Positions 3,157-11,052 of a stretch of 11,052 nucleotides of DNA are shown here, piece after piece. Every line of letters starts with the position of its first letter. Within the stretch, counting starts at the first letter, position 1. Made by a program: the position numbers and the translations under genes. The notes under the pieces were generated by a model that did no database searches, was not told the origin of the DNA, and saw nothing but the letters and a program-made list of their open reading frames with translations. The DNA lies in IMG/VR virus record IMGVR_UViG_2667528155_000009; one strand, 5' to 3'. The DNA is from a virus (lineage: Duplodnaviria > Heunggongvirae > Uroviricota > Caudoviricetes).

Positions 3157-4074
3157 TCACCCCCTGAAACCCGGTGGAATGGTTGTGTCCGGTGGCGAAA
3201 TATCCTGAATCCTGGTCGGGCTGTCGCGGCCACGATTGCCTCCCCGGTCCTGGTCTTTTGCCAGCCAGCCGGTGATAAATTTCCTGATGCCTCGGGCGGT
3301 TTTTCGTCGTCGTCGTTCGCTGAGCAGCCATCCGCGCTGATTACGCAGTGCCTGCCGGACGTCGACCGCCGGATACAGCGTCTCAAACTCGACAACCATC
3401 GATTCGGTCACGGAAAATTCAGAACCGTCGTTGAGCGGAAGCCGAATAAACTCAGGGTCATCAGGCGGTGTTGATGGCACACCAGCGCTCAGAGGCCGAC
3501 GCTCAGGTCCGACATGGGCTGGTCCGGTACCATCGGGCAAACTCGCACCCTGTGACCCGAAATTTTCATCCAGTTGCGTGGGGCTGATTTTTTCAGCTCC
3601 GCGCAAGAGGTTTTGATCTTTTAGATCTGTTTCTTTATCTTTATCTGGATCTTTATTAGTTGCCTTTGTGTTGGGCTCCTGTTCAAACACAGAACCAACA
3701 CCTGTTGAACATGTGTTATTTTCGCTGGCAGATTGTGCTTCCTTCCTGTTCCTTCTTGACTGAACAGATGCTTTTCCTGCTGCAGACTTTTTCGCTAAGG
3801 TTTCCCTGACCGAATGAAGATCATCTTCAATACGCTTGTGAACCCACTCCGTGCCGTTATCAGTAAAAAATTCTCTCAACGACTCTTCTACGGCTCCCCA
3901 ACGCTCACTGCTAACCCGGGCAATCTTTGCCAGCCTGTTTTTCGGTATAGCCCTTCCGGTCTGCCAGTAATTGAACATCAGCAGTAAATAGGCCCCATGC
4001 TCCTCGGTTGAAAGATGCATTGTGTCAGCCAAGTAATCAGCGATATAAAGCTGCATGTATGGAAGTGCCGCCAT
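3157..4074 (-). CDS. DUF1376/YdaU-like phage replication protein with a long low-complexity linker and a C-terminal domain
   Basis: N-terminus MAALPYMQLYIADYLADTMHLSTEEHGAYLLLMFNYWQTG matches the YdaU/DUF1376 pattern from memory; position immediately upstream of the DnaC-like gene is typical of an O-like initiator. GAGG 4 nt upstream of the ATG. Confidence 0.7.
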   Translation of the reverse strand: MAALPYMQLYIADYLADTMHLSTEEHGAYLLLMFNYWQTGRAIPKNRLAKIARVSSERWGAVEESLREFFTDNGTEWVHKRIEDDLHSVRETLAKKSAAGKASVQSRRNRKEAQSASENNTCSTGVGSVFEQEPNTKATNKDPDKDKETDLKDQNLLRGAEKISPTQLDENFGSQGASLPDGTGPAHVGPERRPLSAGVPSTPPDDPEFIRLPLNDGSEFSVTESMVVEFETLYPAVDVRQALRNQRGWLLSERRRRKTARGIRKFITGWLAKDQDRGGNRGRDSPTRIQDISPPDTTIPPGFRG

Positions 4075-4124
4075 AACGCCTCGCTACGCTCTTTTCCGTT
4101 CGGTCTGAATACAAAAATTAATAC

Positions 4125-4141
4125 TCACTGGTCATGTCTCT
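4125..4141 (-). repeat. Boundary motif copy 2 (minus-strand reading AGAGACATGACCAGTGA)
   Basis: Identical 17-mer to 4714-4730; one mismatch to the plus-strand copy at 7842-7859. Confidence 0.7.
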
Positions 4142-4152
4142 CTGTTTGGTGC

Positions 4153-4212
4153 CGAACCTCCTGCTGGTGCTAGCCTGCTGATTCCCCAACCAACAGAACC
4201 ACAGGAGGTTCG
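4153..4212 (+). promoter_or_regulatory. Long-range stem sequestering the ribosome-binding site of the 70-aa gene
   Basis: CGAACCTCCTG at 4153-4163 is the perfect reverse complement of CAGGAGGTTCG at 4202-4212, which contains the GGAGG Shine-Dalgarno 6 nt before the ATG at 4215. Pairing can extend to within 2 nt of the start codon. Confidence 0.4.
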
Positions 4213-4214
4213 AC

Positions 4215-4427
4215 ATGTCAGATACAAAACTTAAAAATGGATTAACGCCTGAACAAATGGCACACGATATCGCTATGGTGCTCATCGGGAACCCATCCCA
4301 TGAATGGCTTTCGGATAATGCGACCAAAACTCGTAGCACTGAATTAGCAATGAGCGCTGTAGCAGAAGAAGTCATGAACATGGAAAAACATCTTGCTGCA
4401 GCTCTTCATCAGTACACGGAGAACTAA
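4215..4427 (+). CDS. Hypothetical small protein (70 aa), encoded antisense to the surrounding early operon
   Basis: Strong RBS (GGAGG, 6-nt spacer), ATG start, intrinsic terminator immediately downstream, and protein-like composition. The overlapping minus-strand ORF 4118-4381 has no RBS and an odd composition. Confidence 0.6.
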   Translation: MSDTKLKNGLTPEQMAHDIAMVLIGNPSHEWLSDNATKTRSTELAMSAVAEEVMNMEKHLAAALHQYTEN

Positions 4428-4438
4428 TCCGCATCAAA

Positions 4439-4463
4439 GGTCGCTGAGTTCGCGACCTTTTTT
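4439..4463 (+). terminator. Intrinsic terminator downstream of the 70-aa gene
   Basis: Stem GGTCGC/GCGACC with a 6-7 nt loop, followed by TTTTTT at 4458-4463. Confidence 0.5.
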
Positions 4464-4684
4464 CAGTCCACTCCAGTAGGCATCCCCAACCATTTTTTTA
4501 TATCGCTATAACTCAGCGTTATGGGCTGATTTTTGCCGGACTCTTCAACCGGTATGGTATGTTCCTCTTCAAATTTCTTTTCGAAGGTACGCATGTGCTC
4601 ACGCCAGGCATTTCGATCTTCGATCGCTTCTTCCCTCCGGTTCAGTCTGGCGTAATACCGTTCCTGCTCAGTCAACGTTTTCAT
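4463..4684 (-). CDS. Hypothetical small protein (73 aa, MKTLTEQERYYARLNRRE...)
   Basis: ATG at complement 4682-4684 with AGGAG and a 5-nt spacer; charged helical composition. The ORF-track extension to 4717 overlaps the upstream gene and lacks an RBS. Confidence 0.5.
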   Translation of the reverse strand: MKTLTEQERYYARLNRREEAIEDRNAWREHMRTFEKKFEEEHTIPVEESGKNQPITLSYSDIKKWLGMPTGVD

Positions 4685-4700
4685 TACTTCTCCTGCATGG

Positions 4701-5204
4701 TTACAACAGATGGTCACTGGTCATGTCTCTGATACTGCTGGCGGTAACTGCTTCGTAGCGTCTGTATTGCTTGTATGGCTTCATCACACTCCCGTTCAAA
4801 ATCCGTAACAGGCGCACCAAGAAGTACCGCATTTGCCACTGCGGTTTTTTTAAAAACTGTGTAAGCAGATACTCGATGCTATGCCCTGCCGTGACCTGCT
4901 TATGCAGCTCCGGCGCGTGTATCCGGATTGCTTCAAGAACTGCGGGGATTAGCGCTGAAAACTTTTCGCGGTGCTCTGTCGTTTCGAGTTTTCGCCATCG
5001 CTGAAAAATGTTTATACGATTCCGGCGCCATGCTTCGTAATCCACCGTTCCGTCATCACGTTCTATACGGTGGACAGCAATATCTGGTCTCACTTGCTGT
5101 TCCAGAAAGGCGCGGGTGATCAACTGTGTTGCACTTTCCTGACTCATTGCGGGTGTAGCCAGCCAGGATGACAGTGCTTTGTTGGCATCCTCAGGGGTGA
5201 TCAT
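4701..5204 (-). CDS. YdaT-like protein (167 aa), occupying the cII-equivalent position
   Basis: Immediately downstream of the Cro-like gene; segments LITRAFLEQ and SALIPAVLEAI resemble Rac YdaT as I recall it. GAGGTG 7 nt upstream of the ATG; the start overlaps the end of the Cro-like gene (translational coupling). Confidence 0.55.
   Translation of the reverse strand: MITPEDANKALSSWLATPAMSQESATQLITRAFLEQQVRPDIAVHRIERDDGTVDYEAWRRNRINIFQRWRKLETTEHREKFSALIPAVLEAIRIHAPELHKQVTAGHSIEYLLTQFLKKPQWQMRYFLVRLLRILNGSVMKPYKQYRRYEAVTASSIRDMTSDHLL
4714..4730 (-). repeat. Boundary motif copy 1 (encodes the YdaT-like C-terminus RDMTSDHLL)
   Basis: Plus-strand TCACTGGTCATGTCTCT; identical 17-mer at 4125-4141. 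Confidence 0.7.
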
Positions 5205-5466
5205 CGTTGTTCACCTCTCTCGCATCCTTTAGTGGTAGATTTTGATGGCTAGGCAAAGCATCCGTTGGATTAGGGTAAAGAACTGAGTCGAGCTGATGCG
5301 GTGTAACTGCATACCCTACGGCCTCACAAAAAGGAATAATTCGTCGCGGTGGGAATTTTCCTGTTGTAACCCATAGACTTACGTTTTGCTGACTAGTTTT
5401 AAGACGTCGGGCGATCTCGGTCTGATTAGTGATGCCGAATAGTCGGCTCCTGGTTTTAAATTCCAT
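5191..5466 (-). CDS. Cro-like / YdaS-family HTH regulator (91 aa from the ATG at 5466)
   Basis: HTH segment ITNQTEIARRLKTSQQNVSLWV; C-terminal IIPFCEAVGYAVTPHQL resembles the YdaS pattern. GGAGG 4 nt upstream of the ATG at complement 5464-5466; the ORF-track start at 5484 is a GTG. Divergent from the repressor gene. Confidence 0.7.
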   Translation of the reverse strand: MEFKTRSRLFGITNQTEIARRLKTSQQNVSLWVTTGKFPPRRIIPFCEAVGYAVTPHQLDSVLYPNPTDALPSHQNLPLKDAREVNNDDHP

Positions 5467-5484
5467 ATATCCTCCAAATGTCAC

Positions 5485-5565
5485 ACTTGTATAAATACAG
5501 CATGAACTTGTATTTTACAAATTTAAATTTGTGTGACGCTAACAAAATTTACTTGTAAAATATGA
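5485..5565. promoter_or_regulatory. Immunity switch region: three operator-like dyads with divergent PR-like and PRM-like promoters
   Basis: Dyads ACTTGTATAAATACA (5485-5499), ACTTGTATTTTACAA (5506-5520) and ACTTGTAAAATATGA (5551-5565), core TTGTA-N3-TACAA. Minus-strand promoter TTGTAA (5515-5520) N17 TATTTA (5492-5497) faces the Cro-like gene. Plus-strand promoter TGTGAC (5532-5537) N18 TAAAAT (5556-5561) faces the repressor. Confidence 0.5.
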
Positions 5566-5568
5566 GGT

Positions 5569-6003
5569 ATGAAAAAAAACAACGAATCAGCTCAATACGA
5601 GACTTCAGCCAGAAGGATCAAACAGGTCCTGTATGAATTAGGCTGGAACCAAAGTCGCCTGGCTAAAGAAATTGGGGTTTCAGCTCAGGCGGTACAACAA
5701 TGGGCAAAAGGTACTTCTCGACCGAATGGCCCTAATCTAACTCGACTTTCTGAAGTCACAAGCAAACCTGAAGCATGGTTTTTCAGTGATGTCAGCGGGT
5801 TATCTGAGAGTCATGCAGTACATTTACCAGAAAGTAATGGTTCAGACTTTCTCCCGCTTAGCGATGAAGAGATCAGACTGCTAACTGTCTTCAGGAAATT
5901 TCCTTCTGTAGAGAGTAAAAACATGCTGTTAGCGTTTGAGATGAGACTTCAGGAGATAAAAGAATACTATTCCAAATACGCTAATCCCAATAAAAACCGA
6001 TAG
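5569..6003 (+). CDS. DicA/RacR-like prophage repressor (HTH_XRE, 144 aa, no S24 peptidase domain)
   Basis: HTH NQSRLAKEIGVSAQAVQQWAKG; C-terminal LSDEEIRLLTVFRKFPSVESKNMLLAFEMRLQEIKEY parallels DicA as I recall it. Divergent from the Cro-like gene across the operator region. Confidence 0.8.
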   Translation: MKKNNESAQYETSARRIKQVLYELGWNQSRLAKEIGVSAQAVQQWAKGTSRPNGPNLTRLSEVTSKPEAWFFSDVSGLSESHAVHLPESNGSDFLPLSDEEIRLLTVFRKFPSVESKNMLLAFEMRLQEIKEYYSKYANPNKNR

Positions 6004-6029
6004 TCTCCTTCTTTCCTCCCCCAACAATC

Positions 6030-6056
6030 ACAAGCCTGCTTGAAATGCAGGCTTGT
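6030..6056 (+). other. Perfect 10-bp hairpin just after the repressor stop (ACAAGCCTGC-ttgaaat-GCAGGCTTGT), no U-tract
   Basis: Direct reading; shares its GCCTGC/GCAGGC stem core with hairpins at 7401-7415 and 7768-7785. Confidence 0.5.
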
Positions 6057-6128
6057 TACACCTCGCATAATAAAACACTTAAATTTCATACAATTAAAAA
6101 TTTTTAGTGATTTTCTCACTTTAAACAC

Positions 6129-6157
6129 TTGTATTTATCAAATCCATTTTGTAGATT
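6129..6157 (+). promoter_or_regulatory. PL-like promoter with overlapping operator-like site
   Basis: TTGTAT (6129-6134) N17 TAGATT (6152-6157); the -35 is embedded in AACACTTGTATTTATCAA, which repeats the ACTTGTA operator core. A second operator-like copy, ACACTTAAATTTCA, lies near 6073-6090. Confidence 0.35.
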
Positions 6158-6239
6158 GATTGTACAAATCCTCTAGCAACACATGCGCGACAGGTAAACG
6201 TTCCGCCGACGGGCGTAAAACAAAGATGAGGACGACAGA

Positions 6240-6428
6240 GTGGACAAGACTGAACTGAAACACATTATCGCCCTGCTCCTGGAAGATGCAAAACGTCTTC
6301 AGCAGGTTGAACCAAATGCAGGCACTGAGGCCCGCATATGGTTGGCTAATAAAACACTTAATTCATTCAGAGAGTTAAGCGGTTTTGCAAGAGGGTCAGG
6401 TATCTCTACCGAACACCAACTTTCTTAG
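6240..6428 (+). CDS. Hypothetical small protein (62 aa, GTG start)
   Basis: GAGG 8 nt upstream of the GTG; first ORF downstream of the PL-like promoter. Overlaps the convergent minus-strand zinc-ribbon ORF by 23 nt. Uncertain. Confidence 0.3.
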   Translation: MDKTELKHIIALLLEDAKRLQQVEPNAGTEARIWLANKTLNSFRELSGFARGSGISTEHQLS

Positions 6429-6594
6429 CTAGCGCCTCCATAATAATAGAATGTCGTTCGCTAAGAATGCCGATTGCCGCCCCGCAAAGTGCACACTGAA
6501 CGAAGTGAATAATGTGACTGCAATTTTTCACTGAGGAATTGGTTTTTAACTCAAAAGAAGTTGATGGGCATTTTGGACAGGTTGTTACAGCCAT
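6406..6594 (-). CDS. Small zinc-ribbon-like protein (62 aa; CPKC ... CALC)
   Basis: Very good RBS (GGAGGG, 6-nt spacer, ATG at complement 6592-6594); Cys pairs CxxC and CxxC about 25 residues apart; conserved element A lies upstream on the minus strand. Confidence 0.45.
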   Translation of the reverse strand: MAVTTCPKCPSTSFELKTNSSVKNCSHIIHFVQCALCGAAIGILSERHSIIMEALAKKVGVR

Positions 6595-6660
6595 ATTTTA
6601 CCCTCCACGGGGTCGATGTTGGTGGAGTTCCCGACGGACGAGGTCGGGAATGTGCGCCGG

Positions 6661-6709
6661 ACACAGGTATAAATCCGGCATACGAAATTCGTATCACATG
6701 CAGGATATG
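6661..6709. repeat. Conserved intergenic element, copy A; contains the perfect 15-bp palindrome ATACGAAATTCGTAT (6680-6694)
   Basis: Same ordered blocks as copy B at 1561-1607. The palindrome is formed only in copy A. Confidence 0.6.
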
Positions 6710-6728
6710 TATTTAAACACGAGCACAT

Positions 6729-6803
6729 AACCGAAAACGCACTACGCAGAACCTTCCTTGTCGGGTCTGTCGTTAAATTTACTGCGATAGTGCGTTTCCG
6801 GTT
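6729..6803. repeat. Long imperfect inverted repeat (about 21-bp arms, about 32-nt spacer)
   Basis: AACCGAAAACGCACTACGCAG (6729-6749) against the reverse complement of CTGCGATAGTGCGTTTCCGGTT (6782-6803); one mismatch and one bulge. Confidence 0.55.
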
Positions 6804-6824
6804 ATGAGTGAAAATCATAACAGT

Positions 6825-6887
6825 GCTGTGTGTAGTCTTTGACGGTATCCGTTAACAAAGTTTTCCTGGCTGATACCGTCCTTTTTC
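6825..6887 (+). ncRNA. Candidate DicF-family sRNA with intrinsic terminator
   Basis: TTTGACGGTATCCGTT is close to the DicF core TTTGGCGGTATCAGTT as I recall it (14/16). Stem GACGGTATC (6841-6849) / GATACCGTC (6872-6880) is followed by CTTTTTC. Lies in the PL-like operon downstream of a DicA-like repressor, the position where dicF sits in Qin. Confidence 0.4.
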
Positions 6888-7071
6888 AGAATGAATTTTA
6901 TAGTGTGGTGAATGCGGCTCAGCGCACGTGACACAGTTAAAAACATGTCAGTCCTTCATCTGTTGATGGGTGGGAATGTTCGTCGGCAGTAATGGTTAGC
7001 TGTTTACTGTCACCGGGAGGCACCCGGCACCACACTCCAAAATTCATTGTGTTACCAGAATGGAGACAACT

Positions 7072-7362
7072 ATGCCAGTTACACCTGAAATAAAACAAAA
7101 CTCAGACTGGATGCGGCGCAACAAATCTGAACAAACCGCCCCTGCCTGTAAGCCTGGTATTATTCAGAAAATATTAAGTACGCTGAACCAGAAAGGTGAC
7201 CCCACCCTTATTCCTTGCGCTTATTGTGGCAAAGCCATCAACAAAAGTGAAATCGTGGAGCATGAACTTATTTATATAAACGGAAGTCAGCTCGCAAGAA
7301 AAACGAATCTATATTGCAGTAAACGATGTGCCGAATATGACCAGATGGCACATGAATCTTAA
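7072..7362 (+). CDS. Zinc-ribbon-like hypothetical protein (96 aa; CAYCGK ... CSKRC)
   Basis: GGAG 5 nt upstream of the second ATG at 7072; the ORF-track start at 7060 lacks an RBS. Confidence 0.55.
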   Translation: MPVTPEIKQNSDWMRRNKSEQTAPACKPGIIQKILSTLNQKGDPTLIPCAYCGKAINKSEIVEHELIYINGSQLARKTNLYCSKRCAEYDQMAHES

Positions 7363-7400
7363 TAGCTGAAAGTTTAACACTGCATTAACCCTGAAACTAT

Positions 7401-7415
7401 GCCTGCAATGGCAGG
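7401..7415 (+). other. Intercistronic hairpin GCCTGC-aatg-GCAGG
   Basis: Same stem core as the hairpins at 6030-6056 and 7768-7785; lies between the 96-aa and 110-aa genes. Confidence 0.4.
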
Positions 7416-7445
7416 ATATCACTCACCCTGAAAAGAGAATATAAA

Positions 7446-7778
7446 ATGAGAAAGACACCGAGCGAATCAGTAATTAATGAACTCAACAAACGAGCAAAGG
7501 AAATTCTTGAACTGTGTGAGAAAAACGATATTCCGGTTGTTTTTTGTTACTCATTCGAATTAAGCCGGAATGAAAATGGATATTTAAACAACAAATCCAT
7601 TACAGCTTATATCAATAAAGAGAAAGGAGCATGGGATTCAACAATAGCCGCAGCCAGCATGATCCTGCGGATGAAAGAGGTTCCTGAGATAGCTATCCAT
7701 GCAATGGCTGAAATGGCTGCGATTTGTGACATCACACGGACTGCATCCGGTACTTCAGATGAAAAAAGCCTGCACTAA
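7446..7778 (+). CDS. Hypothetical protein (110 aa)
   Basis: ATG with an A/G-rich upstream region (AAGAGA); protein-like composition; in the PL-like operon. Confidence 0.5.
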   Translation: MRKTPSESVINELNKRAKEILELCEKNDIPVVFCYSFELSRNENGYLNNKSITAYINKEKGAWDSTIAAASMILRMKEVPEIAIHAMAEMAAICDITRTASGTSDEKSLH

Positions 7779-7790
7779 GGCAGGCATTTT
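7768..7790 (+). terminator. Candidate intrinsic terminator overlapping the 110-aa gene stop, upstream of the RecE-like gene
   Basis: Stem GCCTGC (7768-7773) / GCAGGC (7780-7785) with loop ACTAAG, then ATTTT; a second T-run follows at 7796-7800. Confidence 0.4.
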
Positions 7791-7841
7791 CCCGGTTTTT
7801 ACATCCCGGCGATGCTGAGGTGGGCGACCAAACCCACCGAC

Positions 7842-7859
7842 AGAGACATGACCAATGAG
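7842..7859 (+). repeat. Boundary motif copy 3 (AGAGACATGACCAATGAG), 56 nt upstream of the RecE-like start
   Basis: One mismatch to the minus-strand copies at 4125-4141 and 4714-4730; shares the upstream ACCAAAC with copy 2. Confidence 0.7.
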
Positions 7860-7914
7860 CACCAGAGGTGATCACCGATCGCCTCATTCTAAACAGAAGT
7901 GAGGTTAAAAAACA

Positions 7915-10900: not shown

Positions 10901-10977
10901 GCGAGTGGCCAGCGCCGATCACCTCCGGTAACTCCGATGAAATAGCCGACTACACCGACGAACTGAACGATTTCGAC
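7915..10977 (+). CDS. recE: RecE-like exodeoxyribonuclease VIII, 1021 codons with no stop; 3' end replaced by the chimeric junction
   Basis: C-terminal PD-(D/E)XK-like block RVRPDLEIDLDGVRIGADLKTIS; position at the distal end of the PL-like operon of a Rac-like immunity region; GAGG 10 nt upstream of the ATG. The reading frame runs into N's and 16S sequence after codon 1021 (DFD). Family call is from recall, not a search. Confidence 0.7.
8275..8310 (+). repeat. In-frame tandem hexanucleotide repeat (GACGCA-like, 6 units) encoding a D/A-rich low-complexity tract
   Basis: AACGCA GACGCA GACGCA GACGCA GGCACA GACGCA, translating to NADADADAGTDA. Confidence 0.7.
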
Positions 10978-11052
10978 NCNTGCCATCNGANGNGCCCAGA
11001 TGGGATTAGCTAGTAGGTGGGGTAACGGCTCACCTAGGCGACGATCCCTAGC
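10978..11052 (+). rRNA. 16S rRNA gene fragment (about 75 nt, enterobacterial, corresponding to roughly positions 220-290 of E. coli 16S); not native to this locus
   Basis: TGCCATCNGANGNGCCCAGATGGGATTAGCTAGTAGGTGGGGTAACGGCTCACCTAGGCGACGATCCCTAGC matches the conserved 16S region as I recall it. Abrupt junction with N's at 10978, 10980, 10988, 10991 and 10993, inside what would otherwise be the RecE-like coding frame. Confidence 0.8.

Follow-up and report, generated by a model that had tools for sequence, protein, structure and literature searches.

Why would one and the same 17-nucleotide (nt) sequence stand at three gene boundaries of a single phage early region, each time in the direction of transcription? 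The question is raised by an 11,052-nt stretch of DNA from the IMG/VR virus record IMGVR_UViG_2667528155_000009 (Caudoviricetes), analysed here at its full length and called the window, in which the motif AGAGACATGACCARTGA had been noticed from the letters alone and interpreted either as a lambdoid boundary or linker sequence for module exchange or as a shared cis-acting RNA element before selected genes (the original prediction). The window corresponds to the early region of a Rac-like lambdoid prophage: besides a cI-like repressor gene (5569-6003, plus strand), a minus arm carries cro/YdaS-like, YdaT/CII-like, DUF1376 O-like and DnaC-like genes, and a plus arm carries DicF/STnc100-like RNAs, a YdaE-family gene, a gene for a 110-amino-acid (aa) protein and a RecE-like gene. 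From the comparison with related prophages, the motif is read here, with somewhat better than even confidence, as a start-associated junction cassette specific to one family, namely a subgroup of Rac-like prophages, which would also act as a recombination linker.

Recurrence of the motif in the window

A pattern search recovered the three copies at the positions originally given (Table 1), each without a mismatch, and no further site in the window even when up to three mismatches were allowed. The claim that such recurrence exceeds chance is borne out, as only 0.01 sites of AGAGACATGACCARTGA are expected by chance in the window and none of 200 dinucleotide-preserving shuffles reached three. 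All copies follow the orientation of the local operon, i.e. minus in the cro/ydaT/O arm and plus in the recE arm, and lie at gene boundaries; the next annotated start codon stands 29, 50 and about 55 nt away from the copies at 4714, 4125 and 7842, respectively, and ACCAAAC is found upstream of both the 4125 and the 7842 copies, the gaps and this shared upstream sequence agreeing with the original prediction. As for the peptide RDMT(S/N)(D/E), which had been reported to be common to the three sites, one frame does read so in all of them, but as a by-product of nucleotide conservation: conservation at the peptide level was considered and rejected because the reading frame varies with the context and only the nucleotides stay constant.

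Conservation among Rac-like prophages

In an exact-match scan, the 17-mer was present in 97 stretches of IMG/VR prophage contigs. At most of these loci (the compared prophage loci and genomes are labelled by L-numbers, e.g. L219 or L093), two outward-facing copies about 3 kb apart flank the immunity region: one stands where a ydaT-like gene ends, with the leader of a replication gene directly after it, the other in the recE-like leader. The prophage of the window itself was found in NCBI and Logan assemblies; L219, near-identical to the window apart from the window ends discussed below, holds a fourth exact 17-mer of the same prophage at 16706-16722, about 6.3 kb past the right end of the window, and a DUF1233 excisionase-like gene is called as beginning at the ATG of this copy (16719). 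Upstream of this copy lies GGTCAT, the complement of the ATGACC of the motif, which is also encountered before excisionase-like genes in L089 and L070.

Wider contexts were collected by mismatch-tolerant scans of the IMG/VR loci together with two genomes from a species scan, Pseudescherichia L123 and Scandinavium L140; the species scan, in which a 15-base pattern was compared with 185,579 species, gave overwhelmingly chance matches and, as relevant genomes, only these two. An 11-nt core, GAGACATGACC, occurs exactly in 56 distinct contexts in related Rac-like prophages, those of Pseudescherichia and Scandinavium included, and the consensus of the motif can be written as (R)GAGACATGACC followed by zero to two A and by RTG(A), R being A or G. 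Each phage holds two to five copies, the five of L093 lying within a single co-directional operon. Every copy seen lies in an early region, in a sample consisting mostly of early regions.

As far as the compared sequences go, the motif is conserved in a subgroup of Rac-like lambdoid prophages and is not shared across lambdoid phages generally. It is missing from the Rac prophage of E. coli K-12, where the ydaT-ydaU junction is unrelated and the recE leader retains only ATGAACAGTG and the hairpin after that; in Rac-type E. coli phages, the match to the majority recE leader begins only at the ATG of the motif. Among GenBank phage records it is essentially missing, the sole relevant match being a 5.1-kb Salmonella fragment, and a literature search with the motif sequence returned matches only to unrelated primers. 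The search across lambdoid phages for mosaic breakpoints suggested in the original prediction hence has a double outcome, breakpoints coinciding with the motif in the relatives, as detailed below, but the motif itself being missing from K-12 Rac and from essentially all GenBank phage records.

Start and stop codons in and near the motif

The motif, about 17 nt long, is composed of a weak Shine-Dalgarno (SD)-like GAGA, a C/A-rich spacer, a start codon (ATG or GTG) at motif positions 14-16, and TGA stop codons at 8-10 and 15-17 in the other two frames. In 25 of the 56 core contexts, the in-motif ATG (21 cases) or GTG (4 cases) starts an open reading frame (ORF) of at least 60 codons, with an offset from the start of the core of 12 in 14 contexts, 5 in 8 and 13 in 3. 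These in-motif starts span about 8-10 gene families, among them the helicase-like, 277-aa, 93-aa, MTTKNGN and excisionase-like genes; homologous N-termini align at the start codon of the motif, and in one homologous pair it is ATG in L089 and GTG in L070. In 30 other contexts, including the copies of the window, a co-oriented ORF of at least 80 codons begins 20-100 nt downstream, and about half of all copies lie 40-65 nt upstream of a gene, in structured leaders. With a single context showing neither an in-motif start nor a downstream ORF, a co-oriented gene start accompanies the motif in 55 of 56. On the upstream side, the stop codon of the preceding ORF either is one of the two in-motif TGAs (8-10 for the O-like gene of L093, 15-17 for YdaT) or lies at most 17 nt before the core. 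Because an in-motif start is combined with a frequent upstream stop, the motif appears tied to translation initiation or coupling rather than being a free-standing leader element. The earlier suggestion of a cis-acting RNA element before selected genes pointed in the right direction but was too vague, as the motif holds the start itself in 25 of 56 contexts and often the upstream stop.

Where the gene begins further downstream, the motif start codon can still be open towards it. In all three contexts in which a downstream gene with its own SD sequence stands 33-42 nt away, the motif GTG shares the frame of that gene and the frame stays open; the other leader copies of the window open mini-ORFs (Table 1), and the end of most mini-ORFs falls within -8 to +22 nt of the downstream ATG.

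Several observations weigh against a role in initiation and coupling. Mini-ORF sequences are not conserved, and since 13 open codons arise in about 50% of cases by chance their openness is non-significant; in L080 the mini-ORF has only 4 codons. CTG replaces RTG, with the core kept, at L093 4820, L038 1969 and L042 9869. The window itself has leader-type copies only, with the annotated starts 29-55 nt away. In predicted accessibility, the motif exceeds its flanks only marginally (0.49 against 0.44). Lastly, pairing of the motif with the anti-SD sequence amounts to -2.9 kcal/mol, which ranks among the weakest values when compared with 28 genes of the same prophage (median about -6 to -7 kcal/mol); because of this weak pairing the motif is not simply a strong ribosome-binding site.

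Module exchange at the motif

Two minus-strand copies of the window bound an insertion that is absent from L096 and L050, where the end of ydaT leads through one motif copy directly into the O-like leader; in L035, a different insert occupies the same spot with the same right end of about 36 nt. A four-gamete test was applied to two ydaT alleles (U1, U2) and two unrelated replication modules (D1, D2), and all combinations, U1D1, U1D2, U2D1 and U2D2, were found. Identity between types is 66% for the ydaT alleles (last 41 nt) and 62% for the replication modules (200 nt), compared with 94-100% within types, and the only sequence identical in all four combinations is the motif plus 9 nt, i.e. a 26-nt block. 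As the four combinations share no other identical sequence, at least one crossover must have taken place within or at the edges of this block; by this sequence test, modules recombine at the motif. The original idea of a boundary or linker sequence for module exchange therefore holds within this phage family, given the four gametes and the repeat-bounded insertion, but not for a general lambdoid linker.

In the insert of the window, the two genes are convergent, the 73-aa gene at 4463-4684 on the minus strand and the 70-aa gene at 4215-4427 on the plus strand, the latter with a strong GGAGGT ribosome-binding site; no Pfam or PHROG match was obtained for either. An 11-nt inverted repeat, CGAACCTCCTG and CAGGAGGTTCG (about 4213-4203 and 4163-4153), takes in the ribosome-binding site of the 70-aa gene.

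Table 1. Motif copies and associated features of the window (positions in the 11,052-nt stretch; SD, Shine-Dalgarno)
Feature	Position	Strand	Remarks
Motif copy, 3' end of the ydaT/cII-like gene	4714..4730	-	TGA 4716-4714 stops the -1-frame (homologous) YdaT; GTG 4717-4715 overlaps this stop and shares the frame of the next gene
Motif copy, 50 nt upstream of the O-like (DUF1376) replication gene	4125..4141	-	With the downstream leader, equals the ydaT-O junction of relatives lacking the insertion
Motif copy (A variant), recE-like leader	7842..7858	+	Predicted single-stranded between two conserved hairpins
ORF opened by motif GTG	4463..4717	-	In frame with the called 73-aa gene (ATG 4684, own GGAG); same arrangement in L091 and L035
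Mini-ORF of 14 codons from motif GTG	4084..4128	-	Ends in TAG, 9 nt short of the O-like ATG at 4074; putative coupling relay
Mini-ORF of 15 codons from motif ATG	7855..7902	+	TGA overlaps the GAGG SD sequence of the recE-like gene (ATG 7915); putative coupling relay
Insertion bounded by two minus-strand motif copies (589 bp apart)	4142..4713	-	73-aa gene (-) and 70-aa gene (+); not present in L096 or L050
Extension upstream of the 4125 copy (CAGGCTAGCACCAGCAGGAGGTTCGGCACCAAACAG)	4142..4177	-	Also found as the right end of the L035 insert; resembles in part what precedes the 7842 copy (GAGGTnnGGCRACCAAAC)
GC-rich terminator-like hairpin after the 110-aa gene	7768..7785	+	Covaries among relatives: GCCTGC/GCAGGC, GCCCGC/GCGGGC, GGCCGC/GCGGCC
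Hairpin H1 (GGTGGG cgaccaaa CCCACC), just upstream of the motif	7819..7838	+	Compensatory variants GGTCGG/CCGACC and GGTGAG/CTCACC in relatives
Hairpin H2 (GAGGTGATC acc GATCGCCTC), just downstream of the motif	7865..7885	+	Stems in relatives: GAGGCG/CGCCTC, GGAGGCG/CGCCTCC, GAAGGCG/CGCCTTC

The ydaT/cII-like gene and the recE leader

The ydaT/cII-like gene (4701-5204, minus strand), whose 3' end overlaps one copy, is open in two frames towards its end: the 0 frame terminates with RDMTSDHLL* and the -1 frame with QRHDQ* at the TGA of the motif. It is in the -1 frame alone that homology carries on, both to YdaT relatives with a single frame, including the conserved YdaT C-terminus (TAVANAVLLGAPVTDFERECDEAIQAIQTLRSSYRQQYQRHDQ*), and to a CII-like PHROG profile, which matches the fused frames with 112 bits over residues 1-151 and the unfused frame with 99 bits over residues 1-129. 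RDMTSDHLL, originally taken as the YdaT-like C-terminus, does end the 0 frame but is a non-homologous tail, the conserved end being the ...QRHDQ* of the -1 frame. On the minus strand, a slippery heptamer A AAA AAA (4851-4845) is directly followed by the hairpin ACCGCAgtggcaaaTGCGGT (4845-4826), and in L035 the corresponding site is a dnaX-type A AAA AAG; the two-frame ydaT is found in most relatives, single-frame versions in L070, L093, L042 and L038. A programmed -1 ribosomal frameshift at 4826-4856 is thus probable in this gene.

The leader of the recE-like gene keeps its architecture across diverged relatives, with a terminator-like hairpin, a conserved box, H1, the motif, H2 and a small hairpin abutting the ribosome-binding site in this order. 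GACCA/ACCA repeats are clustered around the motif. The flanking hairpins are peculiar to the recE-leader copy.

Proposed role and alternative explanations

The position, orientation, start and stop codon usage and conservation of the motif, as well as recombination at it, are read directly from the compared prophages, and a start-associated junction cassette doubling as a recombination linker is the reading that they best support. Under this proposal, ribosomes finishing the upstream gene would terminate in or just before the motif, and the same or new ribosomes would initiate at its RTG. At tight junctions, the RTG would be the start of the next gene, with nothing but the motif between the two cistrons; ahead of large key genes (recE-like, O-like), the RTG would open a mini-ORF of 13-19 codons ending at or near the real ribosome-binding site, which would relay translation. 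The motif sequence itself may drive or regulate initiation and coupling, and a trans-acting reader might be involved. Besides, the same 17-26 nt or so at many junctions would provide the short homology for module exchange and cassette insertion in phages that encode RecE/RecT, and it is because it is identical at many junctions that the motif would be used in this way.

Could the motif be a recombination linker or scar and nothing else, spread through RecET-type use as short homology until a copy stood at each module edge? The four-gamete pattern confining a crossover to the 26-nt block, the direct copies flanking insertions, the partial copies of the longer upstream extension at several junctions and the recE/recT genes of these phages would all be expected from such a process. 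Yet the 11-nt core is invariant in 56 contexts and several genera while the flanks fall to about 62-66% identity, which implies purifying selection on the motif sequence itself, and a homology patch would need neither a fixed start-codon register, ATG/GTG substitution included, nor built-in stops; a purely recombinational origin is hence judged unlikely. In another reading, the motif would be an mRNA operator, through which a phage or host RNA-binding protein or a small RNA would jointly repress or activate translation, or affect stability, of delayed-early genes. T4 RegA and Mu Com are regulators of this sort that act at initiation regions. That the conservation far exceeds the needs of SD pairing fits such a scheme, as do the recE-leader copy lying between two covarying hairpins as if displayed, the GACCA/ACCA repeats near the motif, the genes concerned (replication, recombination and excision), which are known to need delayed-early control in lambda, and the small zinc-finger YdaE-family gene found in the same operon at every motif-bearing locus with ORFs listed. 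E. coli Rac, however, has ydaE and lacks the motif, and no complementary RNA turned up in the window or in 20 kb of prophage: in the window, the only antisense partner was the antisense strand of the motif itself, the next duplex (-19.1 kcal/mol) being no better than those of shuffled motifs, and no 9-mer complementary to the motif occurs in the 20 kb, a search that covers phage-encoded RNA only. No special complementarity to 16S rRNA was seen either, with a best duplex of -14.7 kcal/mol, weaker than the shuffle median of -17.9 kcal/mol. An mRNA operator is accordingly rated as quite unlikely. The more specific version, in which a phage protein (e.g. of the YdaE zinc-finger family) or a host factor would recognise GAGACAUGACC in the transcript and turn the replication, RecET and excisionase genes on or off together, is similarly doubtful; if true, it would be, at the level of translation in this prophage family, the counterpart of lambda N antitermination at the level of transcription.

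Explanations at the level of transcription fare worse. An asymmetric protein site on the DNA, like the stoperators of phage L5, which would block or modulate RNA polymerase by its orientation at junctions, would suit an asymmetric, multi-copy and co-oriented sequence that occupies short intergenic gaps or overlaps start and stop codons, but the putative operators of the immunity region are of an ACTTGTA type unrelated to the motif and an exact start-codon register is not expected of a transcriptional roadblock, which makes this reading very unlikely. No sigma-70-like promoter match was found at or next to the copies. An antitermination site like nut or put on both early operons would explain why an outward pair flanks the immunity region in the manner of nutL/nutR and why the recE-leader copy sits among conserved hairpins near a terminator-like stem. 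That stem, though, lies upstream and not downstream of the copy; no boxA or boxB is present, no Rfam match was obtained at the motif copies even at E<=1, and the scanned ORFs included none recognised as N-like. Many copies lie in translated sequence or serve as start or stop codons, the ydaT copy being read in two frames, and up to five copies occur per operon, for which reasons a nut- or put-like role is highly improbable.

Should the junction cassette be confirmed as the right reading, a single sequence of about 17 nt would link the translation of neighbouring early genes and at the same time mark the seam for swaps and insertions of replication, recombination and accessory modules, which would provide a concrete and testable case of the long-debated linker idea for lambdoid mosaicism. 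In practice, gene starts can be corrected, several genes beginning at the ATG or GTG of the motif, and short leader ORFs can be flagged upstream of recE-like and O-like genes.

Other features of the window

In the divergent promoter region (5485-5568), repeats of the ACTTGTA(T/A) type are found, with one more at 6120-6145, downstream of the cI-like gene; judged from their sequence, they are probably repressor operators. Sub-threshold Rfam matches on the plus strand concern DicF (24 bits, 6827-6881) and STnc100 (39.5 bits for a gathering score of 47, 6880-7084), in the pL-side operon as in Qin/Rac-type prophages.

The ends of the window (1 to about 100 and about 10977 to 11052) differ from the near-identical L219 prophage and are joined through N-containing stretches; the last 50 nt or so are a fragment of bacterial 16S rRNA (positions 237-287 of the model Rfam RF00177), and the window end truncates the RecE-like ORF. 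These ends appear to be chimeric or padded. Beyond the integrase, the chromosomal flank in L219 (18300-20333) has a G+C content of only 34% and matches none of 5,426 complete E. coli genomes by megablast, on which grounds the host of this prophage is not E. coli.

Comparison with known systems

Lambda nut sites consist of boxA and a boxB hairpin in untranslated RNA, with one site per operon and an N-type antiterminator gene, and HK022 put sites consist of two adjacent stem-loops acting in cis on RNA polymerase. Like the outward copies of the motif, nutL and nutR form a near-identical pair of about 17 nt, one per divergent early operon; unlike them, the motif has no boxA/boxB, its copies are translated, and there are more than two per phage, at many junctions. 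Stoperators (L5 and Cluster A) are asymmetric sites of 13-17 bp that match the repressor operator at the early promoter. They have in common with the motif the asymmetry, the multiple copies, the orientation along transcription and the placement at intergenic junctions, but the putative operators found here differ from the motif in sequence.

Other parallels concern genome mosaicism. The PeSL (promoter-early stem-loop) elements, reportedly described by Arbiol et al. in 2010, are said to be mobile regulatory cassettes of T4-type phages; in both cases, repeated regulatory cassettes flank small genes and double as recombination substrates for modular shuffling, PeSLs being however transcriptional (promoter and stem-loop) and longer, whereas the motif has no promoter features and acts, if it does, at the level of coding junctions. 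Linker or boundary sequences are said to go back to Susskind and Botstein in the modular theory of lambdoid evolution, and linkers reportedly reappeared later in comparisons of the HK620 type. There too, a short conserved sequence at module borders allows homologous exchange to join different modules, but the motif is limited to one subgroup of Rac-like prophages, and it is not a neutral spacer since it is tied to start and stop codons.

The closest analogue, albeit not a homologue, is the set of start-associated sequences (SAS) of Cluster K mycobacteriophages, with consensus GGGATAGGAGCCC, a strong AGGAG and a location 3-7 nt upstream of the start in 11-19 copies (Pope et al., 2011; PMC3203893), a paper in which the stoperators of mycobacteriophage L5 are mentioned as well. 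SAS and the motif are unrelated in sequence and host, and differ in that the motif has a weak SD-like part, carries the start codon and stops in two frames itself, and occurs in 2-5 copies per phage against 11-19 for SAS. Both are nonetheless short, asymmetric and present in several copies of one orientation; both precede unrelated gene families, sometimes hold the upstream stop, and are conserved beyond rRNA pairing. SAS lie next to starts and in the non-structural region of the genome, which for the motif applies to the 25 of 56 contexts with an in-motif start and, among the mostly early regions compared, to all copies seen, respectively. If the proposed role is true, the motif would be the enterobacterial counterpart of the mycobacteriophage start-associated sequences, in a host with easy genetics and ribosome profiling.

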